64,000 nt of DNA from positions 9,466-73,465 of the IMG/VR virus record IMGVR_UViG_3300031772_002739; one strand, written 5' to 3'. Within the stretch, counting starts at the first letter, position 1. Each line of letters opens with the position of its first letter. Position numbers and translations under genes: made by a program. Positions 5,949-50,246 of the stretch are shown piece after piece. The notes below the pieces were generated by a model. It did no database searches, had not been told where the DNA came from, and saw only the letters and a list, made by a program, of their open reading frames with translations. The DNA comes from a virus.

Positions 5949-6799
5949 TCAAGTTAAAAAACATAGTCGAAGAATTTTTGAGATCGTCACCGGAGGGAGA
6001 AAGACGTAGGACGATTGATTTAGATCAAGCTGTTTCTTTGGCAAAAGATTATAGTGAATCGATAGAGATAGGCGGTAAAGGCCGGTTGTATAGGGGGGTA
6101 AGAGGCGCCGATCAACGTTATTATTATATAGATCCGTCCAGTTCACCAATGAGATATTCAAGAGATGTAAACAACATTTACATGGCTCTTATGGATACTT
6201 TACCGGCGTGGAGTGGATTTCCAAAAAGAAGTCATAGTATTATAGTTTCTACAGATTATACAGATGCTAATAGCTATGGTGCTTTGTATGTAGTGTTTTT
6301 GAAAAATGAATCGAAAATAGCTTCTGCTAGTTCCAAAGATATTATTTCGTATGCGGGAATGCCATATCTTTATGATAGACTGAACGTGGATTTAGAAGGT
6401 TATATGTATAGATTGGAAAAACTGTTTAACACTGGAAAAGAGTTAGGATGGTATATGCCTACGACAGGAAAACATGATTATACCTACAAAAATATAGAAG
6501 ATTTTTACAACGAAATGAGCGATTTAACTGTGGAACGGTTGAAAATTCTTCAAACTAAGTTTCAGAACTACGTTAAGATAACTAATGTGATAGATGATAT
6601 GTTGAAACATCCTGATCCAGAAAACGGATGGAAAAATTATTTTAATGAATTATTAAGTCCAACAAAAAATGGTATAACTTTAGAAACGATATCATCTATA
6701 AAATACAATGATGGTAGAGAATGTTGGACAGAATTTCCTGCTATACTTGTCAGACAAACTTTTTTGGGTGGATTTATTGATGCTTATAATAATGTATGA
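5945..6799 (+). CDS. ADP-ribosyltransferase-like paralog 3 with MIKLKNIVEE leader
   Basis: LYRG, FPKRSHSIIVSTD..A..YG, RECW. Confidence 0.6.
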   Translation: MIKLKNIVEEFLRSSPEGERRRTIDLDQAVSLAKDYSESIEIGGKGRLYRGVRGADQRYYYIDPSSSPMRYSRDVNNIYMALMDTLPAWSGFPKRSHSIIVSTDYTDANSYGALYVVFLKNESKIASASSKDIISYAGMPYLYDRLNVDLEGYMYRLEKLFNTGKELGWYMPTTGKHDYTYKNIEDFYNEMSDLTVERLKILQTKFQNYVKITNVIDDMLKHPDPENGWKNYFNELLSPTKNGITLETISSIKYNDGRECWTEFPAILVRQTFLGGFIDAYNNV

Positions 6800-9386: not shown

Positions 9387-10235
9387 ATGTCTGATAATAC
9401 AGTTAAAATCCGGCGCTCTCCAACTGCTGAAGAAGTTGTAGTTCAACTACAACCAGTTAAACAAGAAGAGAAGTATCCCACTGAACATGTTCCCCTTCCT
9501 ACCAAGGGTCATTTTTATCCCCTCGACCATCTATTGTCAATAGGAACGATAGAGATCAAACAAATGACAGCCAGAGAAGAAGATGTTCTCGCTAATCAGG
9601 AACTTCTTCGTAAGGGAACAGTGTTAGATGTTCTTTTATCGTCTCTTATTGTTGATAAATCCATCAACGTTAAAGACATTTTGATTGTGGATAAAAATGC
9701 CATAATGATCGCTATTCGTCGTTTAGCTTATGGAGACGATTATCCAATTTCCGTGTCATGTCCTCAATGTGATGTTAAAAATCAAGTGGTTATAAATCTT
9801 GGAAATATTGAAAATAAACCTTTTGATCTTGAAGGTGTTCAGAAAGGTGAAAATTCGTTCGCATTCAAGTTACCAAATTCCAAAAAAACTATCACCTATA
9901 AACTTCTCAATCAACACGACGATGATTCTATTACAACCGAGCTAAACAATCAAAAAAAGATTTCAAAAGATGCTCCGTCAAGAGAACTCACCACGAGGTT
10001 GAAATATCTTATCACATCAGTTGATGGTACCACCGACAAGGCTTATATTCGTAAGTTTGTTGATGAAGAATTGATGGCTAACGATTCTCTGGCGCTACGA
10101 ACACATTTTAGAGATCACAATCCTGATATTGATATGTCGTTTGATTTTACGTGCCATCAATGTAGTTATGAGAGGAGGTTAGGAATCCCTCTGGGAATGT
10201 CCTTTCTATGGCCTGGCGTTGACGATGGAAGATAA
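9387..10235 (+). CDS. baseplate hub assembly / tail assembly chaperone (T4 gp26-like)
   Basis: LPTKGHFY, MTAREEDVL, RRLAYG..Y, two CxxC motifs, ends FLWP; located upstream of tape measure. Confidence 0.75.
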   Translation: MSDNTVKIRRSPTAEEVVVQLQPVKQEEKYPTEHVPLPTKGHFYPLDHLLSIGTIEIKQMTAREEDVLANQELLRKGTVLDVLLSSLIVDKSINVKDILIVDKNAIMIAIRRLAYGDDYPISVSCPQCDVKNQVVINLGNIENKPFDLEGVQKGENSFAFKLPNSKKTITYKLLNQHDDDSITTELNNQKKISKDAPSRELTTRLKYLITSVDGTTDKAYIRKFVDEELMANDSLALRTHFRDHNPDIDMSFDFTCHQCSYERRLGIPLGMSFLWPGVDDGR

Positions 10236-32484: not shown

Positions 32485-32754
32485 ATGAAAAAATCCGATC
32501 TTAAAAAATTGATTGAAGAAGTTAATAAAGAGGTGGAAAGAAACCCTCTATATGTTAAAGGATTTCGTCAAGGTGAAAAAGATGGATATGTCAAAGAAAA
32601 GGTTGACGTAAAAGATCAACCTGATATTTATCAGTTGGGATACAAGAGAGGTTATCAAGCTGGATTTTGGAGATTATACAGCGAAAAGTTGAACAAAGGA
32701 TTAGCTGCCGCTGGAGAGTTCATGGGGGGTTTTGTAAACTTAAATCGTAGGTAA
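32485..32754 (+). CDS. small hypothetical protein
   Basis: MKKSDLKKLIEE leader; YxxGY/GF repeats. Confidence 0.6.
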   Translation: MKKSDLKKLIEEVNKEVERNPLYVKGFRQGEKDGYVKEKVDVKDQPDIYQLGYKRGYQAGFWRLYSEKLNKGLAAAGEFMGGFVNLNRR

Positions 32755-32779
32755 ACGTTTTGGTAATAATTCATAAGAA

Positions 32780-32805
32780 GACACACCATTTCGGTGTGTT
32801 TTTTT
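32780..32805 (+). terminator. rho-independent terminator
   Basis: gacacacc-atttc-ggtgtgtt-ttttt. Confidence 0.75.
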
Positions 32806-32815
32806 ATTTTCTCAC

Positions 32816-32843
32816 TTGACATCCTATAAAAGAGTGGTATTGT
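32816..32843 (+). promoter_or_regulatory. sigma70-like promoter of the AAA/vWA unit
   Basis: TTGACA-N16-TATTGT with TG extension, 9 nt before ATG. Confidence 0.65.
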
Positions 32844-32852
32844 ATCTCAACA

Positions 32853-33167
32853 ATGAAAACCCCGAATCTAATCAACATGGCAAATATAGACGTTACGAAA
32901 ATGCTAGCGGATTGTTGGAGTCTAAAACCCAACGACCTGATTATTGACAAACTTAAATGGAAGTATATGGTATGGTCCGTATTGAGAGGAAAGAACATCC
33001 TCTTTGTTGGTCCCACTCGTTGTGGAAAAACTAAAGCCGCTCAAAGTGTTTCTGAAATATTTTCTGAAATTAAAACTGAAATTGTTGATGAAAACCAATT
33101 GGACGTTCTTAAATCCGATAGAAGCATTAAAATAGAAAAAATAGAGGAAGTTTCAGATGAAAAGTAG
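32853..33167 (+). CDS. MoxR-like AAA+ ATPase, N-terminal fragment
   Basis: GKNILFVGPTRCGKT Walker A, then a ~30 aa tail and a stop. Confidence 0.8.
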   Translation: MKTPNLINMANIDVTKMLADCWSLKPNDLIIDKLKWKYMVWSVLRGKNILFVGPTRCGKTKAAQSVSEIFSEIKTEIVDENQLDVLKSDRSIKIEKIEEVSDEK

Positions 33168-33205
33168 AGTTGGAATATACTTATATCTGTAATAGAAAGT
33201 ATATT

Positions 33206-33970
33206 ATGATGGTGATTTATAAAACTATAAACCTAATAAATGAAAAATATTATGTTGGAAAACAACAAAGATATACAAAGTCATATTTAGGTTCTGGTTC
33301 AGCACTAAAATCTGCCATAAAGAAATATGGAAGAAGAAATTTTAGGAAAGAAATCTTAGAAATTTGTAAATCAGAATCCGATTTGGAAAAAAAAGAATTG
33401 GAGTGGTTGGATAAACTAAACGCTATAAAGGATAAAAACTCGTATAATTTAGTAAGAGAAACATCGCCCAATAAACATAGAAGTTATACAGACCCAAAAT
33501 ATAGAAAACGATTGAGTAATTCTATTAAAAAAATATTTAACACTCCAGAATCACATATTCGGTTAAGCAAACAAAATAGAGGAAAAAACAACCCGATGTA
33601 TGGTAAAAAAAGATCGAAAGAGTTTAAAAAAGTGGTTAGCAAAATCCATTCGGGAAAAGTAGTATCTGACGAAACCAGAGAAAAAATACGAAATAGTCGA
33701 ATAGGAAGAAAAGCATCGTCTGAAACAAAAAACCGGATGAAAGAAAGCCAGCGCCATCGTTGGGATACTATAAAAGTAAAAATGATATTAAACAACAATC
33801 ACATGTGGAGTTTCGACAATAGATATGATTTTATATCTTTTATAAAAGATTATAATAATTCTATACCAAAAGGAAAAGTAAGAGGGTCAGGTCCTAAAAG
33901 AATTAATTGGAAACGAGCAATAAAAAATGAATATGACTTCATAAAGGTACATAAAAATGAAAAAATATAA
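33206..33970 (+). mobile_element. GIY-YIG homing endonuclease with NUMOD3-like repeats
   Basis: VIYKTINLINEKYYVG, YLGSG, NF.KEILE, SYN; GKNNPMYGK and S.ET.EK repeats. Confidence 0.85.
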
Positions 33971-34757
33971 AGTTACATATAAAAAATATAATAGACCATT
34001 GTTTATTTTCAATTGCGGGTCTTCTCAAGACGCTCGAGCTACTTTAATAGGTAATACTTACTTTAAAAAAGACACAGGAACAATTCTCTGTAAATCTGAA
34101 TTTGTTGAAGCAATACAAACACATAACGCAATCATCTTATTAGATGAACTAAGTAGAGGGCATCACGATTTTTGGAATATTTTACTTCCCACTATCGATC
34201 CGACACAACGGACTCTTAGGTTAGATGAGTCGGAGAATTCTGCCGTAATTCACGTCCTACCAGACGTAACGTTTATGGCTACGGCTAATGTTGGTAATGA
34301 ATATACGTCAACAAAAGTTATGGATAAAGCTTTGACGGCCAGGTTCCCTACAATTATTGAAATGATTCCTTTGGAATATGAAGGAGAAATGGAGTTGTTG
34401 AAAATTAATCATCCAGATGTTCTTCAAGACGTTTTGGAAGGATTCATTTCTATCTGTCGTATTTCTGATGATACTAAAAAACAATGTAGGTTAGATAATC
34501 CAAGAATTACCACTTTCATTCCTACCGGAACTGTAGTCGAAATGGCCGAAATGCTTATCGACGGGTTTTCGTTAATGGATATCGCCCAATCTGTAATTTA
34601 TCCGATGTATGACGATTCCGGCGGAGCCGAATCTGAACGGTTGTATGTTAAACAGATTGTTCAGAAATATCTTGATAACAAGTCAGGGGGCGTAAGTTCT
34701 CCAATCAACGATCCGTTAAATAAGGTTGGAACCTCGGGGAACAAGTTCAGTTTTTAA
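33957..34757 (+). CDS. MoxR-like AAA+ ATPase, C-terminal fragment
   Basis: RPLFIFNCG..DARATLIG, ILLDELSR Walker B, ATAN, MDKAL..RF. Confidence 0.85.
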   Translation: MKKYKVTYKKYNRPLFIFNCGSSQDARATLIGNTYFKKDTGTILCKSEFVEAIQTHNAIILLDELSRGHHDFWNILLPTIDPTQRTLRLDESENSAVIHVLPDVTFMATANVGNEYTSTKVMDKALTARFPTIIEMIPLEYEGEMELLKINHPDVLQDVLEGFISICRISDDTKKQCRLDNPRITTFIPTGTVVEMAEMLIDGFSLMDIAQSVIYPMYDDSGGAESERLYVKQIVQKYLDNKSGGVSSPINDPLNKVGTSGNKFSF

Positions 34758-34758
34758 T

Positions 34759-37038
34759 ATGTCAAAAAAGGTTGAAAATTCGGAAACGTATTCCGATTTT
34801 TGGTTGGACGATGAGTTAATCAGCCAGTTTATTGGCGACGAAACTCAAGAATCCGAAGAGGGCGAAACGCCTTCTGCTCCGATGTTTTCGTTAGATTTGA
34901 TTCAGTTAGCGGCATATCGAAAGGTGATATCCAATTTTGTATCCATTCTTACAAATAAAGATGTTCCGGTTAAATTCATTACTACAGGCAATAATTCCAG
35001 CGATGGAAATGTGGTATACCTCTCTTCCTCAATTAAAAAGAAAAAAGATTTTGATTGGAATGTTGGTCTATCTCTCCACGAGGCGGAACACATTGTAAAA
35101 AGTGATTGGGATATGGTTAAGAAATTTTATACCATCGTTCCACAACATCTTAAAGATAAAGCTAAAAAGAAAAATATCACCAATGAACAATTATGTCAGT
35201 TTTGTAAACACGTTTGGAATGTAATTGAGGATCGTTATATCGATATGTTGGTTTTTACGGATGCTCCTGGATATCGTGGGTATTATGAAGCGATGTATAA
35301 TAAATTGTGGAATAGTAAATCTATATCGGATGGGTTAAAATCCAAATTATTTAGAATATCAAATTTGATTGGATATGAATTTCGTATCACAAATCTTACT
35401 AATGTTGATACCGAGGTTGATGCTCTTCCTGGGTTGAGGAAAATCGCCGAAACGATTGATATAACAAATATTTTAAGATTGAAAACTACTCAAGATAGGG
35501 TAGACGTTTCTTTTAAGGTTGTAGAAATTGTTTTGGATAATATTGGAAAACAGCCCGTTCAACCAACTGAAACTGATAAGATTATCAAAAAAATTAAGGA
35601 TGTGGTGGGATCGCCTTCGCCAAGTGGAGGAACTGGTTCAGATGGTGATGAAGATGATGACGATAATAATAAAAACGATTCAGATTCAGGAGGAGATTCT
35701 ACGGATGATGATGATGAAGACGATTCTAAAAATGGATCTTCTGGAGATAAAGAGGAAAAAGATGGAGAAGAAGATGGAAAAGGATCTGGAGATGATAAAT
35801 CGTCAGATTCGGGGTCAGATAAATCAGATAACACATCCGATCCAACCAACCCAGGAAAAGACGATGACTTGTCTGACAAAAAAGTTAAAGCCATAAAAAA
35901 AGCGTTTGAACAGCAGTTAAATTTTCTTTTAAGAAATTACGACAAAGCCAAACAAACCGTATCCAAGGAATCGGCCGATTTGTTAGATATTATCGAAAAG
36001 GCTGGAATTACTTTAAGAATGGCTGGACATGGGTATTCTCAACCTGGAGAAGAAATTCGTGATGGTATTAATTGTATTGTAGTCAATAAGTTGACCAAAG
36101 AATTGATGGAAAGTGGGCATCACATTTTTCCACTGACCACTATAACCGTGGCCAACAAAACCCCCAATAAATCTTATGAGGATGCCGTAGTTAAAGGGTT
36201 TACAATGGGCAAGATGTTGGGTAAGAAACTACAAATTCGAAGTGAAACCAACATCACAAAGTATATTCGAAGAATGGCTGGAAAGATTGATAGACGATTG
36301 TTGGCTGGTATTGGCGCCGGGTTGGAAGATATCTTTTTCAAAATTAAAACGGACAAGTATAACAAGGCTCGTCTTCACATCTCCGTGGACGCTAGTGGAT
36401 CAATGATGGATGACAACAAGTGGTGTCCAACCATGTCGTTGTTGGTTTCCATTTGTGTAGCATTTTCTATGGTGGAAAATTTGAAGATATCCGTGTCTTT
36501 CCGATCTACTCACAGAATGTCTACTGGAGTAGAATTACCTTATATTGTGTTGGCCTATGATTCTGATGTGGATAAAATATCAAAGATACGAAATTTGTTT
36601 CCATATCTAAAGGCTTCTGGCTGCACCCCCGAGGGGTTGGCGTTCGAATCCACGATGGATAGTTTTATCATCGGTAAGAAGTCGGATGGAACGGATGTCT
36701 ATTTCCTTAACATATCTGATGGTGAACCATATTTTTTCCTGAATGGAATTATGAATAAAAGTCGAACCAATTTCTCATATCAAGGTCAAGGAGCGTGTCT
36801 TCACACCAAAAAGCAGATTGAAAAACTTCGGTCTGCTGGTATAAAGATATTAAGTTATTTTATAGAAAGTGCTGATAGCGGTATAGGATACAATTTATAT
36901 GGTGTGTCTGGGATTCCCTATAAGGAAACATTATTCCAACAGTTTAGATTGATGTATGGAAAGGATGCTCAGTTCATTAACATTACCAACGTCTTCCAAA
37001 TAGCGAAAACAATTAATGGTCTGTTTCTACAGAAATGA
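34759..37038 (+). CDS. vWA-domain protein with HExxH domain and acidic linker (MoxR partner)
   Basis: LHEAEH, NVIEDRYID, long D/S/G-rich spacer, SVDASGSM MIDAS, TPE, ISDGEP. Confidence 0.8.
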   Translation: MSKKVENSETYSDFWLDDELISQFIGDETQESEEGETPSAPMFSLDLIQLAAYRKVISNFVSILTNKDVPVKFITTGNNSSDGNVVYLSSSIKKKKDFDWNVGLSLHEAEHIVKSDWDMVKKFYTIVPQHLKDKAKKKNITNEQLCQFCKHVWNVIEDRYIDMLVFTDAPGYRGYYEAMYNKLWNSKSISDGLKSKLFRISNLIGYEFRITNLTNVDTEVDALPGLRKIAETIDITNILRLKTTQDRVDVSFKVVEIVLDNIGKQPVQPTETDKIIKKIKDVVGSPSPSGGTGSDGDEDDDDNNKNDSDSGGDSTDDDDEDDSKNGSSGDKEEKDGEEDGKGSGDDKSSDSGSDKSDNTSDPTNPGKDDDLSDKKVKAIKKAFEQQLNFLLRNYDKAKQTVSKESADLLDIIEKAGITLRMAGHGYSQPGEEIRDGINCIVVNKLTKELMESGHHIFPLTTITVANKTPNKSYEDAVVKGFTMGKMLGKKLQIRSETNITKYIRRMAGKIDRRLLAGIGAGLEDIFFKIKTDKYNKARLHISVDASGSMMDDNKWCPTMSLLVSICVAFSMVENLKISVSFRSTHRMSTGVELPYIVLAYDSDVDKISKIRNLFPYLKASGCTPEGLAFESTMDSFIIGKKSDGTDVYFLNISDGEPYFFLNGIMNKSRTNFSYQGQGACLHTKKQIEKLRSAGIKILSYFIESADSGIGYNLYGVSGIPYKETLFQQFRLMYGKDAQFINITNVFQIAKTINGLFLQK

Positions 37039-48370: not shown

Positions 48371-49468
48371 TTACCAAATAAAATTATCTCTGTAATATTG
48401 TATTACACTTGGTAATTCTTTGTCAAATTCACAAGTTATTTTCCATCCTAATGATTTTAGTTTGTTACTATCTATACTATAACGAACATCTTGCCCACTT
48501 CTTGTGTAAGAAAAATCACATATTTCTTCCATATTGTTATTATTCAAACCATTGTCTTTTGATTGGAATGAAAAAAATCCATTCTCATCTTTGTAATTTA
48601 TAAGAATACAATTATTGCCATAAATATTTACCCTAGAATCGGGAATTTGTGAGTCGATTTTTCTTTCAATATTGTGTTTTCCTTTTATACCAAGGATTTT
48701 TGCGATTTTTGCTACAACTCTCCAATTTTCTATTTCATAATCTCCAGCAATATTATAAATTTCATTTAATTTTCCTTTTTCTACAACAGTTAATATGCCA
48801 TCAACACAATCATTTATGTGAAGCCATGTTCTGATAGGCAAACCAAGATTATGAAGTGAAATTTTTTTACCAAGAATTAAATTTCGACATGTTTTAGGAA
48901 TTAGTTTTTCAGAATTTTGACGCGTTCCCCAAGTATTTGTAGCTCTTCCTATTTTATATTTAATATCATATGTTCTAGCGTAAGATTTTACTAATAAATC
49001 TGCACTAGCTTTTGAAAAAGAATATGGATTGCTTGGATTATAATTATCCGTTTCTACATGAGACCCGATTCCGATAGCATCTCCATAAATTTCATCAGTA
49101 GACATTTGATAAAAAAGAGGTCGAATTTTTTTGTGACGAATAATTTCTAATAAATTATGAACGCCATTTATGTTAGATTTTAAAAATTCATTACTGTTTT
49201 CTATACTATTATCAACATGAGATTCTGCACAAATATTAAATAATATATCTAAGTCTGGAAGATGTTTTATATCATTAATATCTTTATGTTCGAATTTAAA
49301 TTGTTTATTATATTTAATTTTAAATTCATCCATTAATTTTGGATAAGAACAATAGGATAATTTATCTACACCATATACATACCACCCCATTGCTAAGCAT
49401 TTTTCTGTCAAATGACTTCCAATAAACCCAGCACATCCAGTTATCATGCAAATTTTTATATCATTCAT
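48371..49468 (-). CDS. rmlB: dTDP-glucose 4,6-dehydratase-like protein with C-terminal insertion
   Basis: ITGCAGFIGS, AESHVDNSI, STDEIYG, YSFSK, EKLIP, R.GQD.RY; start MND at 49468. Confidence 0.8.
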   Translation of the reverse strand: MNDIKICMITGCAGFIGSHLTEKCLAMGWYVYGVDKLSYCSYPKLMDEFKIKYNKQFKFEHKDINDIKHLPDLDILFNICAESHVDNSIENSNEFLKSNINGVHNLLEIIRHKKIRPLFYQMSTDEIYGDAIGIGSHVETDNYNPSNPYSFSKASADLLVKSYARTYDIKYKIGRATNTWGTRQNSEKLIPKTCRNLILGKKISLHNLGLPIRTWLHINDCVDGILTVVEKGKLNEIYNIAGDYEIENWRVVAKIAKILGIKGKHNIERKIDSQIPDSRVNIYGNNCILINYKDENGFFSFQSKDNGLNNNNMEEICDFSYTRSGQDVRYSIDSNKLKSLGWKITCEFDKELPSVIQYYRDNFIW

Positions 49469-50246
49469 ACATTTTCCATCCTCCAACCGAATTAAATTTT
49501 CTTTTAATTAATTGCCCTAAATTTCCTTGATTTAATTTGTATTTTGTTCTTAAATTATATTGAGTAGATTCTTCGATTCCATGTTTAGGGTGAATAAATT
49601 TATACACGTTATTGTCATATTGTGAATGTTTTTCTCCACGTTGTGCATTACTCATTTTTAATCGGGCTTCTATAGAATGAGTTTTTCCTTTTAATTTTTT
49701 ACTCATTTTTAATTTGGTTTCGTCTGAAAGACGTTTTCCAAAAAGATGATTCTTTTTACCTTTACATGCATTACTCATTTTTATTAAAGTTTCAGTTGAA
49801 AACATTCTTCCTTTAAGTGAATTTCCTATTTTAATTTTTGTTTTTTCGGGAAGACGTTTTCGAAAATGAGGATGATTACTTCCTTTTTTTGCTATACTCA
49901 TTTTCATTCGTGTTTCTGGTGAACGAGTTAATCCTCTACTTGGGCAAATTGAGTTGTATCCTATATTATAAGATTTGAATGGAAACATTTTACACCAATC
50001 CAAATAATATTGCTCTACCTCTTGTAATTGTTTTGATGATAATTTCTCTTCTATTTTAAATATAAACCCATCCTCTCCATATTTATTCCAAGCATTTTGA
50101 AGATATAAATTTTTATGTTTATTGTTTTTTAATTCGTTTTTATGATTGATAAATCTACGAGTTATATCGGAAGATGAACCGTAATATACTTTTTCATTAT
50201 TTATATTTGTTATGCTATAAATTCCTGATGTTTTTATTTTTTTCAT
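49461..50246 (-). mobile_element. GIY-YIG homing endonuclease with NUMOD3 repeats
   Basis: SGIYSITN..KVYYGSS..R..H; repeated S.ET..KMS...KG. Confidence 0.85.

Follow-up and report, generated by a model that had tools for sequence, protein, structure and literature searches.

A MoxR-class AAA+ ATPase gene split by a GIY-YIG homing endonuclease gene in phages, with extra termini predicted to form one small fold across the break

How can an enzyme gene that is interrupted by an endonuclease gene still supply its product? The question is raised by a locus in the IMG/VR virus record IMGVR_UViG_3300031772_002739, of which we analysed a stretch of 64,000 nucleotides (nt), positions 9,466 to 73,465, hereafter called the window. 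The record is a 73-kb virus contig, and its CheckV completeness estimate of 17% indicates that the source is a very large phage; all 16 sequencing runs that contain the window are DNA metagenomes of sediment. The locus consists of three co-directional open reading frames (ORFs): the N-terminal half of an ATPase (N-half), a GIY-YIG gene, and the C-terminal half of the same ATPase (C-half). We consider it very probable that a homing endonuclease gene (HEG) of the GIY-YIG/NUMOD3 kind splits the ATPase, that the two halves are made separately and co-fold, and that a mini-domain formed by their extra termini is inherited together with the HEG and about 60 flanking codons, the whole being copied by homing.

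The break lies between the sequences SVSEIF and NRPLFIFN, and an alignment with two contiguous homologues shows that no core residue is lost. Contiguous homologues that align across the break are found in Microcystis phage Mel-JY01, in an uncultured 484-kb phage and in IMG/VR contigs. The N-half and the C-half are in the same frame, with 927 nt between F70 of the former and N12 of the latter. An earlier note on this DNA had placed Walker A and Walker B in separate ORFs around the GIY-YIG gene, and the coordinates confirm this (Table 1). It had also described the termini of both halves as extra relative to intact relatives, and they are indeed absent from most of the family: among the 77 loci read, 73 are contiguous and have no extra sequence, three present the C-half alone (the window, L013 and L081), and one, L020, is contiguous and contains the extra sequence. 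Compared with the 73 contiguous relatives, the N-half has 34 additional residues (the tail) and the C-half 11–12 (the head).

The host gene is a MoxR-class AAA+ ATPase (AAA_5) of the group that includes NorQ, CbbQ, CobS and midasin, as indicated by Walker A, Walker B, the fold, and a match of the C-half to Pfam AAA_5 above the cut-off (31.6 bits, cut-off 22). Foldseek neighbours of the model of the intact relative L020 are NorQ (3.9e-14) and CbbQ2 (5.9e-13), at sequence identities of 14–18%. The family profile matches midasin (2.4e-40), CobS (1.8e-10) and NorQ (1.5e-8) in the PDB, and with these two lines of evidence the class assignment holds. The product of the middle gene is, judging from its domain, its NUMOD3 module and its site-specific occurrence, a GIY-YIG homing endonuclease with predicted cleavage activity. 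Its Pfam matches are NUMOD3 (2.8e-11), SegE_GIY-YIG (25.6 bits, cut-off 25) and GIY-YIG (22.8 bits, cut-off 22.6), and its PHROG match is phrog_314, 'homing endonuclease' (5.5e-29). All five full-length relatives of the HEG in IMG/VR are located at this site, and 25 other matches share the GIY-YIG domain only. A blastn search for near relatives among phage records gave one match of 175 nt, restricted to the GIY-YIG domain.

The nature of the extra termini is suggested by two intact proteins, L020 (345 amino acids, aa) and P0007 (347 aa), in which tail and head form one continuous insertion of about 38 aa. The AlphaFold2 model of L020, built on a 31-sequence alignment, has a predicted local distance difference test score (pLDDT) of 88.7 and a predicted template modelling score (pTM) of 0.83. 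It contains a strand (residues 63–68), a helix (72–80) and two further strands (84–89 and 93–98), followed by a core strand (102–106). The pLDDT of consecutive 10-residue blocks of the insertion is 90, 90, 82 and 86 in L020, and 89, 92, 87 and 87 in P0007, which has the same elements. In these models the insertion is a strand-helix-strand-strand unit between the Walker A helix and core strand beta2. The split proteins stop just past its third element and resume just ahead of the fourth, which places the HEG in the turn of the last hairpin. The pairing of KYKVTY with IKIEKIEE that the earlier note had proposed matches both models. The same note had viewed the extensions as additions to broken ends; L020 and P0007 carry the segment as a single insertion, which is literally the observation that the note had named as speaking against its proposal. 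Its description of the domain as circularly permuted found no support.

Residues made by the junctions vary between loci and are few: about five (VSDEK) that close the window tail and two or three that open the head. L020 has a Met (in MNYKV) exactly at the position where the C-half starts. This residue fits a re-fusion after loss of the HEG and, equally, an insertion upstream of a pre-existing Met.

The split form is widespread. A search with the N-half protein found four other proteins of 94–96 aa (P0003–P0006) with 62–69% identity, the tails being conserved like the bodies. Further split loci were found in IMG/VR and JGI metagenomes by a back-translated head pattern and an endonuclease profile. 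Altogether, 13 split loci with DNA have the same break: the window, L013, L081, L082, L084–L089, L092, L144 and L146. The HEG is located between the halves in 12 of them, although the stored piece of L088 holds only its 3' part. In the thirteenth, L084, the HEG is deleted and the halves are still split, 34 nt apart and out of frame; in the other loci the distance is 790–1020 nt. The L084 spacer (2084–2117) aligns to the last ~15 HEG codons of a relative, and the final Pro and the stop codon of its N-half come from this HEG remnant read in another frame. In all four loci compared, the N-half stop, which follows the tail, and the C-half ATG, which precedes the head, are placed equivalently. A tail-profile search that covered 1.84 billion representatives yielded at least 18 clusters of tailed N-halves (18 of the 150 matches listed). 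These proteins end 0–8 residues past the tail-profile match and include lineages with an N-terminal extension of ~100 aa. The L013 locus has an extra ORF of 74 aa between the HEG and the C-half (6085–6309), with a weak match to Pfam DUF6558 (E 0.0056) and no PHROG match; it was seen in this locus only, and L088 seems to have a similar gap.

Selection on the parts was assessed by six pairwise comparisons of four diverged split loci. The proportion of synonymous differences (pS) is 0.48–0.96 in every segment, that is, synonymous sites are saturated. The proportion of nonsynonymous differences (pN) is 0.14–0.39 in the tail (pS 0.62–0.96), 0.05–0.29 in the head, 0.19–0.33 in the ATPase bodies and 0.14–0.31 in the HEG (pS 0.61–0.81). 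Low pN at saturated pS means that tail and head are translated and constrained, and that both halves and the HEG are maintained. Judged by these substitution patterns, both halves are kept by selection as separate ORFs. It is very unlikely that the insertion inactivated the ATPase and left the halves as decaying remnants: Walker A, Walker B and all family-invariant residues are retained in the two halves, body pN is far below the saturated pS across the four loci, and the split form persists in 13 loci and at least 18 N-half clusters.

Phage group I introns often contain GIY-YIG genes, and the break is precise, which would suit a group I (or group II) intron that holds the HEG, with tail and head arising by intron read-through. 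The occurrence of GIY-YIG genes in such introns is also described in the available text of PMC3943268. An intron at this locus is nevertheless extremely unlikely. Rfam at E ≤ 10 over positions 32500–35000 gave seven chance-level matches and no intron family. Despite saturation at synonymous sites, tail and head show constraint at the protein level, and they are protein segments within the intact relatives. The stop and the ATG are kept at the same places in the loci compared, L013 has its further 74-aa ORF between HEG and C-half, and the L084 halves are out of frame with a spacer of only 34 nt, which cannot hold a ribozyme.

The hallmarks of a split intein are a Hint domain, an N-terminal Cys or Ser, a C-terminal Asn and a Cys, Ser or Thr at position +1. 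A Hint domain is far larger than ~45 aa, the total length of tail and head. Trans-splicing of the halves by tail and head would agree with the gene order, since half, free-standing endonuclease and half follow each other in the same way in the fractured genes with split inteins (Dassa et al. 2009, available text of PMC2677866), and with the first tail residue, which is Ser in four of the five aligned N-halves and Cys in P0006. We give this explanation hardly any credence. No Pfam Hint or intein family matches the halves, nor the 47-aa insertion at E ≤ 1; the position past the head is occupied by Arg, His or Pro, and the head itself ends differently among loci (N, D, TH, ER, LR). In contrast to the flanking peptides described in PMC2677866, which trans-splice, those found here are too short, have no intein motifs and remain in the protein, as the segment does within the mature fold of the intact relatives. 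The earlier note's view of a gene fractured by neither intron nor intein thus stands, with no Rfam intron, no Hint family and, in L084, a split that persists without the HEG. An intein origin of the tail, suggested by a faint resemblance of its start to intein N-terminal motifs, was rejected for want of Pfam support. Ribosomal bypass was rejected as well. Gene 60 of phage T4 has a 50-nt bypass; the gaps here are 790–1020 nt, or 34 nt and out of frame, so that a bypass of this type does not fit, and the only matching landing codon in L084 would run into a stop.

The history of the insertion was reconstructed from trees of the C-half body. In the IQ-TREE tree of 48 rows, the split label changes six times, at least five of these changes being forced by well-supported branches, and split forms are intermixed with insert-free sisters. 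L013 has a mosaic sequence: over the first ~60 residues past the site it has 80–87% identity to L020, P0010 and L082, and 60–70% to L018, L014 and P0023, its sisters in the backbone; beyond that stretch, the identity is 90–93% to the sister L018 and 20–43% to L020. Segment trees of 37 rows were built for 75 proximal and 151 distal columns. The proximal tree places all 15 insert-bearing rows and 4 insert-free rows on one side of a split, with four changes of the label. In the distal tree the label changes seven times, and L013 pairs with the insert-free L018 at 95. On the distal segment, the approximately unbiased (AU) test rejects a grouping of L013 with its neighbours from the proximal tree (p 2.7e-6), and likewise one clade comprising every insert-bearing row (p 3.3e-6). 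Both intact insert-bearing forms have a split sibling that is nearly identical: the identity of P0008 to L020 is 100% over eight windows of 30 aa, and that of L146 to P0007 is 93–97%. The insert-free P0014 is 93–97% identical to P0007 adjoining the site. As judged from the trees and the L013 mosaic, the insertion, the HEG and ~60 flanking codons appear to move together between alleles. The sequence data fit both orders of events, insertion first and arrival with the HEG. Read-derived contig pieces contained no HEG-free allele and no joints; they are identical to the window and fragmentary, and decide neither way.

Assembly of the halves was modelled by co-folding the two window ORFs in three runs with three controls. 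The interaction prediction score from aligned errors (ipSAE) was 0.75 in all three runs and 0.00 in the best of the controls. Of 78 solved complexes, 51 reach the ipSAE mark used, as do 2 of 108 mismatched pairs. At least 88% of the contacts are common to the runs, with a partner pLDDT of 77 or more. The predicted interface includes tail residues 67–80, 83, 86, 90–100 and 102, and head residues 1–15. The halves are one domain of a much-solved fold, and the result may therefore reflect likeness to solved structures; the score points to the plausibility of pairing, not to binding.

A gene of similar organization is known in phage Aeh1. Its order nrdA-a, mobE, nrdA-b was reportedly described by Friedrich in 2007, and to our knowledge Aeh1 nrdA is the only endonuclease-split gene in which the tails have been tested. 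According to the available text of Crona et al. 2010 (PMC3045599), the mobE gene overlaps nrdA-b, and the tails that NrdA-a and NrdA-b carry are absent from contiguous NrdA and are essential for activity, not for heterodimer formation; in the authors' view the mobile element brought its own antidote to fragmentation, which may be general. The splice-free re-joining proposed in the earlier note was already in print there for Aeh1 NrdA, and the strand pairing that it invokes is favoured here by prediction. As in Aeh1, an enzyme gene is interrupted by a free-standing endonuclease gene at a point between two neighbouring beta-strands, the downstream half is overlapped by the endonuclease ORF, and the halves would be translated separately. 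The C- and N-terminal tails are likewise absent from contiguous homologues, and it is likewise proposed that the mobile element brings them along and that they make the break harmless with neither RNA nor protein being spliced. Unlike in Aeh1, where an HNH endonuclease gene splits a ribonucleotide reductase, the host enzyme is a MoxR-class AAA+ ATPase and the endonuclease is GIY-YIG/NUMOD3. In contrast to the oppositely charged peptides of Aeh1, the tails are predicted to form one strand-helix-strand-strand fold across chains. The present arrangement, known from sequence alone, also recurs in many diverged phages, with HEG-deleted and unbroken-insertion derivatives.

Several observations weigh against a co-inherited unit with separately made, co-folding halves. 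The proximal tree has just 75 columns, and its key split is unstarred, with 88 in the SH-like approximate likelihood ratio test (SH-aLRT); the AU test on this segment rejects L013 with the backbone clade marginally (p 0.0375), for a group chosen after the tree was seen. HEG identity tracks body identity (0.74 between the window and L081, 0.54–0.56 between L082 and the others), so that vertical co-descent with losses, instead of transfers, is possible for much of the history. The C-half has no clear Shine-Dalgarno sequence, yet only 9 of the 46 long ORFs in the window have one. Assembly of the halves and endonuclease activity are predictions, as is any contribution of the tails to assembly. The complex prediction bears out the earlier note as far as tail and head are in the interface; its tightest contacts, however, are within the AAA+ core sheet, between N-half residues 48–52 (beta1) and C-half residues 106–109 and 130–134. 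By analogy with the Aeh1 heterodimer, the tails may be dispensable for pairing.

The unbroken segment in L020 and P0007 could be an ordinary, lineage-specific insertion of greater age, hit by the HEG by chance. On this explanation, which we regard as rather unlikely, the HEG struck a permissive surface hairpin, the halves rejoin through the AAA+ core alone, and the tails have no particular part in the re-joining and do not belong to the mobile unit. It would account for the confident folds of the two intact proteins, for the low predicted error of the core-sheet contacts and for the parallel divergence of HEG and body, and it agrees with Aeh1, whose tails are described as unneeded for heterodimer formation (available text of PMC3045599). 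It accounts less well for the insert-bearing alleles, which are scattered among insert-free sisters in the distal tree but cluster in the 75 columns adjoining the site. Only two insert-bearing forms are unsplit, each with its near-identical split sibling, and the L020 Met sits exactly at the C-half start. In addition, some tailed N-halves belong to deep clades, and in IMG/VR the relatives of these clades are all insert-free: scans with P0065 and P0068 for split relatives retrieved 50 loci, and those read, 39 by script and 5 by eye, were contiguous and without the insertion.

Going further than the co-inheritance of insertion and HEG, we tentatively suggest, as a possibility somewhat short of an even chance, that the mobile element itself includes the mini-domain, which would act as a portable non-covalent clasp, be co-converted with the HEG and pre-adapt recipient alleles to splitting. 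Under this suggestion, an FNCG-type flank may be a cleavage-immune variant of the target.

The database form of the N-half, P0002, has 96 aa and starts at ATG 32877, a possible true start. The HEG ORF was listed from TTG 33170; its first ATG is at 33206, which corrects the starts 33170 and 33197. From its ATG on, the C-half shares 14 nt with the end of the HEG ORF (4 nt in both L081 and L082), and 19 nt separate the HEG stop from the first conserved C-half codon. The spacer between the N-half stop and the HEG ATG, 38–42 nt long, is nearly invariant in four split loci (window 33165–33205, L013 5292–5336, L081 614–655, and L082 on the reverse strand), in contrast to the saturated synonymous sites of their coding sequences. 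No stable hairpin is shared by these spacers, whose minimum free energies are –5.5 to –14.5 kcal/mol. The spacer probably holds HEG expression signals, and could serve as promoter, as translational operator or as a site related to the endonuclease.

Table 1. Coordinates of the split ATPase locus and adjoining features in the window
Feature	Position	Strand	Remarks
Promoter-like site, TTGACA-16 nt-TATTGT with TG	32816..32843	+	Upstream of the N-half; consensus match only
N-half ORF, MoxR-class AAA+ ATPase	32853..33167	+	104 aa; strand beta1, Walker A, helix alpha1, then tail
Walker A, GPTRCGKT	33009-33032	+	N-half residues 53-60
Tail, 34 aa (SEIKTEIV...SDEK)	33063..33164	+	Strand-helix-strand by homology to the L020 and P0007 models
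N-half stop codon (TAG 33165) and 38-nt spacer to the HEG ATG	33165..33205	+	
Free-standing GIY-YIG + NUMOD3 homing endonuclease gene (HEG)	33206..33970	+	254 aa; frame differs from the ATPase halves
C-half ORF	33957..34757	+	266 aa; head, core strand beta2, Walker B, rest of the AAA+ core and lid
Head, MKKYKVTYKKYN, predicted last strand of the mini-domain	33957-33992	+	11-12 extra residues
Walker B, ILLDE	34134-34148	+	C-half residues 60-64
Downstream partner gene	34759..37038	+	759 aa; syntenic in all relatives looked at

The promoter and terminator scan was not above chance, and no convincing terminator was found between N-half, HEG, C-half and partner gene. Promoter-like sites number 19 in the region, against 16.7 ± 4.4 in shuffled sequences, which makes the site upstream of the N-half a weak hint at most. 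Just upstream of this site, a G+C-rich hairpin with a T-run (32781–32806), reported by the scan on the minus strand, is probably the terminator of the preceding gene.

The pairs NorQ/NorD, CbbQ/CbbO and CobS/CobT (PDB 9qh4, 6l1q and 9ujv) share with the phage family the fold, the Walker motifs and a large partner gene directly downstream. Unlike NorQ, CbbQ and CobS, some members of the phage family have the alpha1-beta2 insertion, and the von Willebrand factor A (vWA) nature of the partner is unconfirmed here. The 759-aa partner has no Pfam VWA match and no PDB sequence match; its C-terminal DASGSM is presumably similar to a metal ion-dependent adhesion site (MIDAS), and the product is possibly vWA-like. 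A long acidic low-complexity linker rich in Asp, Ser and Gly is encoded at 35600–35900. Among the ATPases, the Mel-JY01 homologue (L001 2041–3723) has an N-terminal extension of ~230 aa that is absent from the window protein, and several IMG/VR clades have an extension of ~100 aa unlike that of Mel-JY01. In the insert-free P0013, available as protein only, GHTRCGTT replaces the Walker A GKT, the Lys being substituted; possible explanations are loss of ATPase activity and an error in sequencing. The window contains a second GIY-YIG homing-endonuclease-like ORF (49461–50246, minus strand, 261 aa) within a minus-strand cluster of sugar genes, which matches HEG residues 95–181, the NUMOD3 part, at 33% identity.

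Other phage genes have been divided in a comparable way. The available text of PMC2988022 describes the T4 topoisomerase genes 39 and 60 with mobA, and gene 43 of Aeromonas phages 25 and 44RR, which is split, with a seg-like gene. In these cases, too, a contiguous gene has become two that encode separate polypeptides, in association with mob or seg endonuclease genes. The gene 43 of phage 44RR, described there as split without an endonuclease gene, parallels L084. A literature search combining MoxR, homing endonuclease and phage found nothing on such a split ATPase, judged by title.

We propose the following scheme for the split ATPase. One transcript would run through the N-half, the HEG, the C-half and the partner gene. 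The cassette would give the upstream fragment its stop codon and the downstream fragment its overlapping ATG, so that two polypeptides would arise from the ATPase gene, neither RNA nor protein being spliced. Translation of the C-half could start independently or be coupled to that of the HEG ORF. The two polypeptides would then co-fold non-covalently, with beta1 of the N-half inserted in the C-half's core sheet and the mini-domain hairpin closed across chains by the strands of tail and head. The endonuclease would cut HEG-free alleles, and repair from the donor would copy the HEG, the halves of the mini-domain and ~60 downstream codons, as the mosaicism suggests. Deletion of the HEG from a gene that stays split (L084) and the insertion in one piece (L020 and P0007) would be secondary states.

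The kind of arrangement is already known from Aeh1 nrdA; new are the host enzyme, the endonuclease class, the tail pair as one fold, the breadth of the family and the series of states. The ATPase family provides a second and much broader case after Aeh1, with a different enzyme and a different class of endonuclease. It adds evidence from sequences for a joint movement of tails and endonuclease gene, and its tail pair is confidently predicted as a single small fold. If the mini-domain is a mobile clasp, it would be functionally analogous to a split intein, with no ligation ever taking place, and L084, then L020 and P0007, would represent successive stages of decay and re-fusion. It could also be of use as a small non-covalent complementation tag for splitting proteins. 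Four natural states are seen, namely insert-free, split with the HEG, split without the HEG, and insertion in one piece, and the idea that a mobile element brings its own repair is directly testable in this family.

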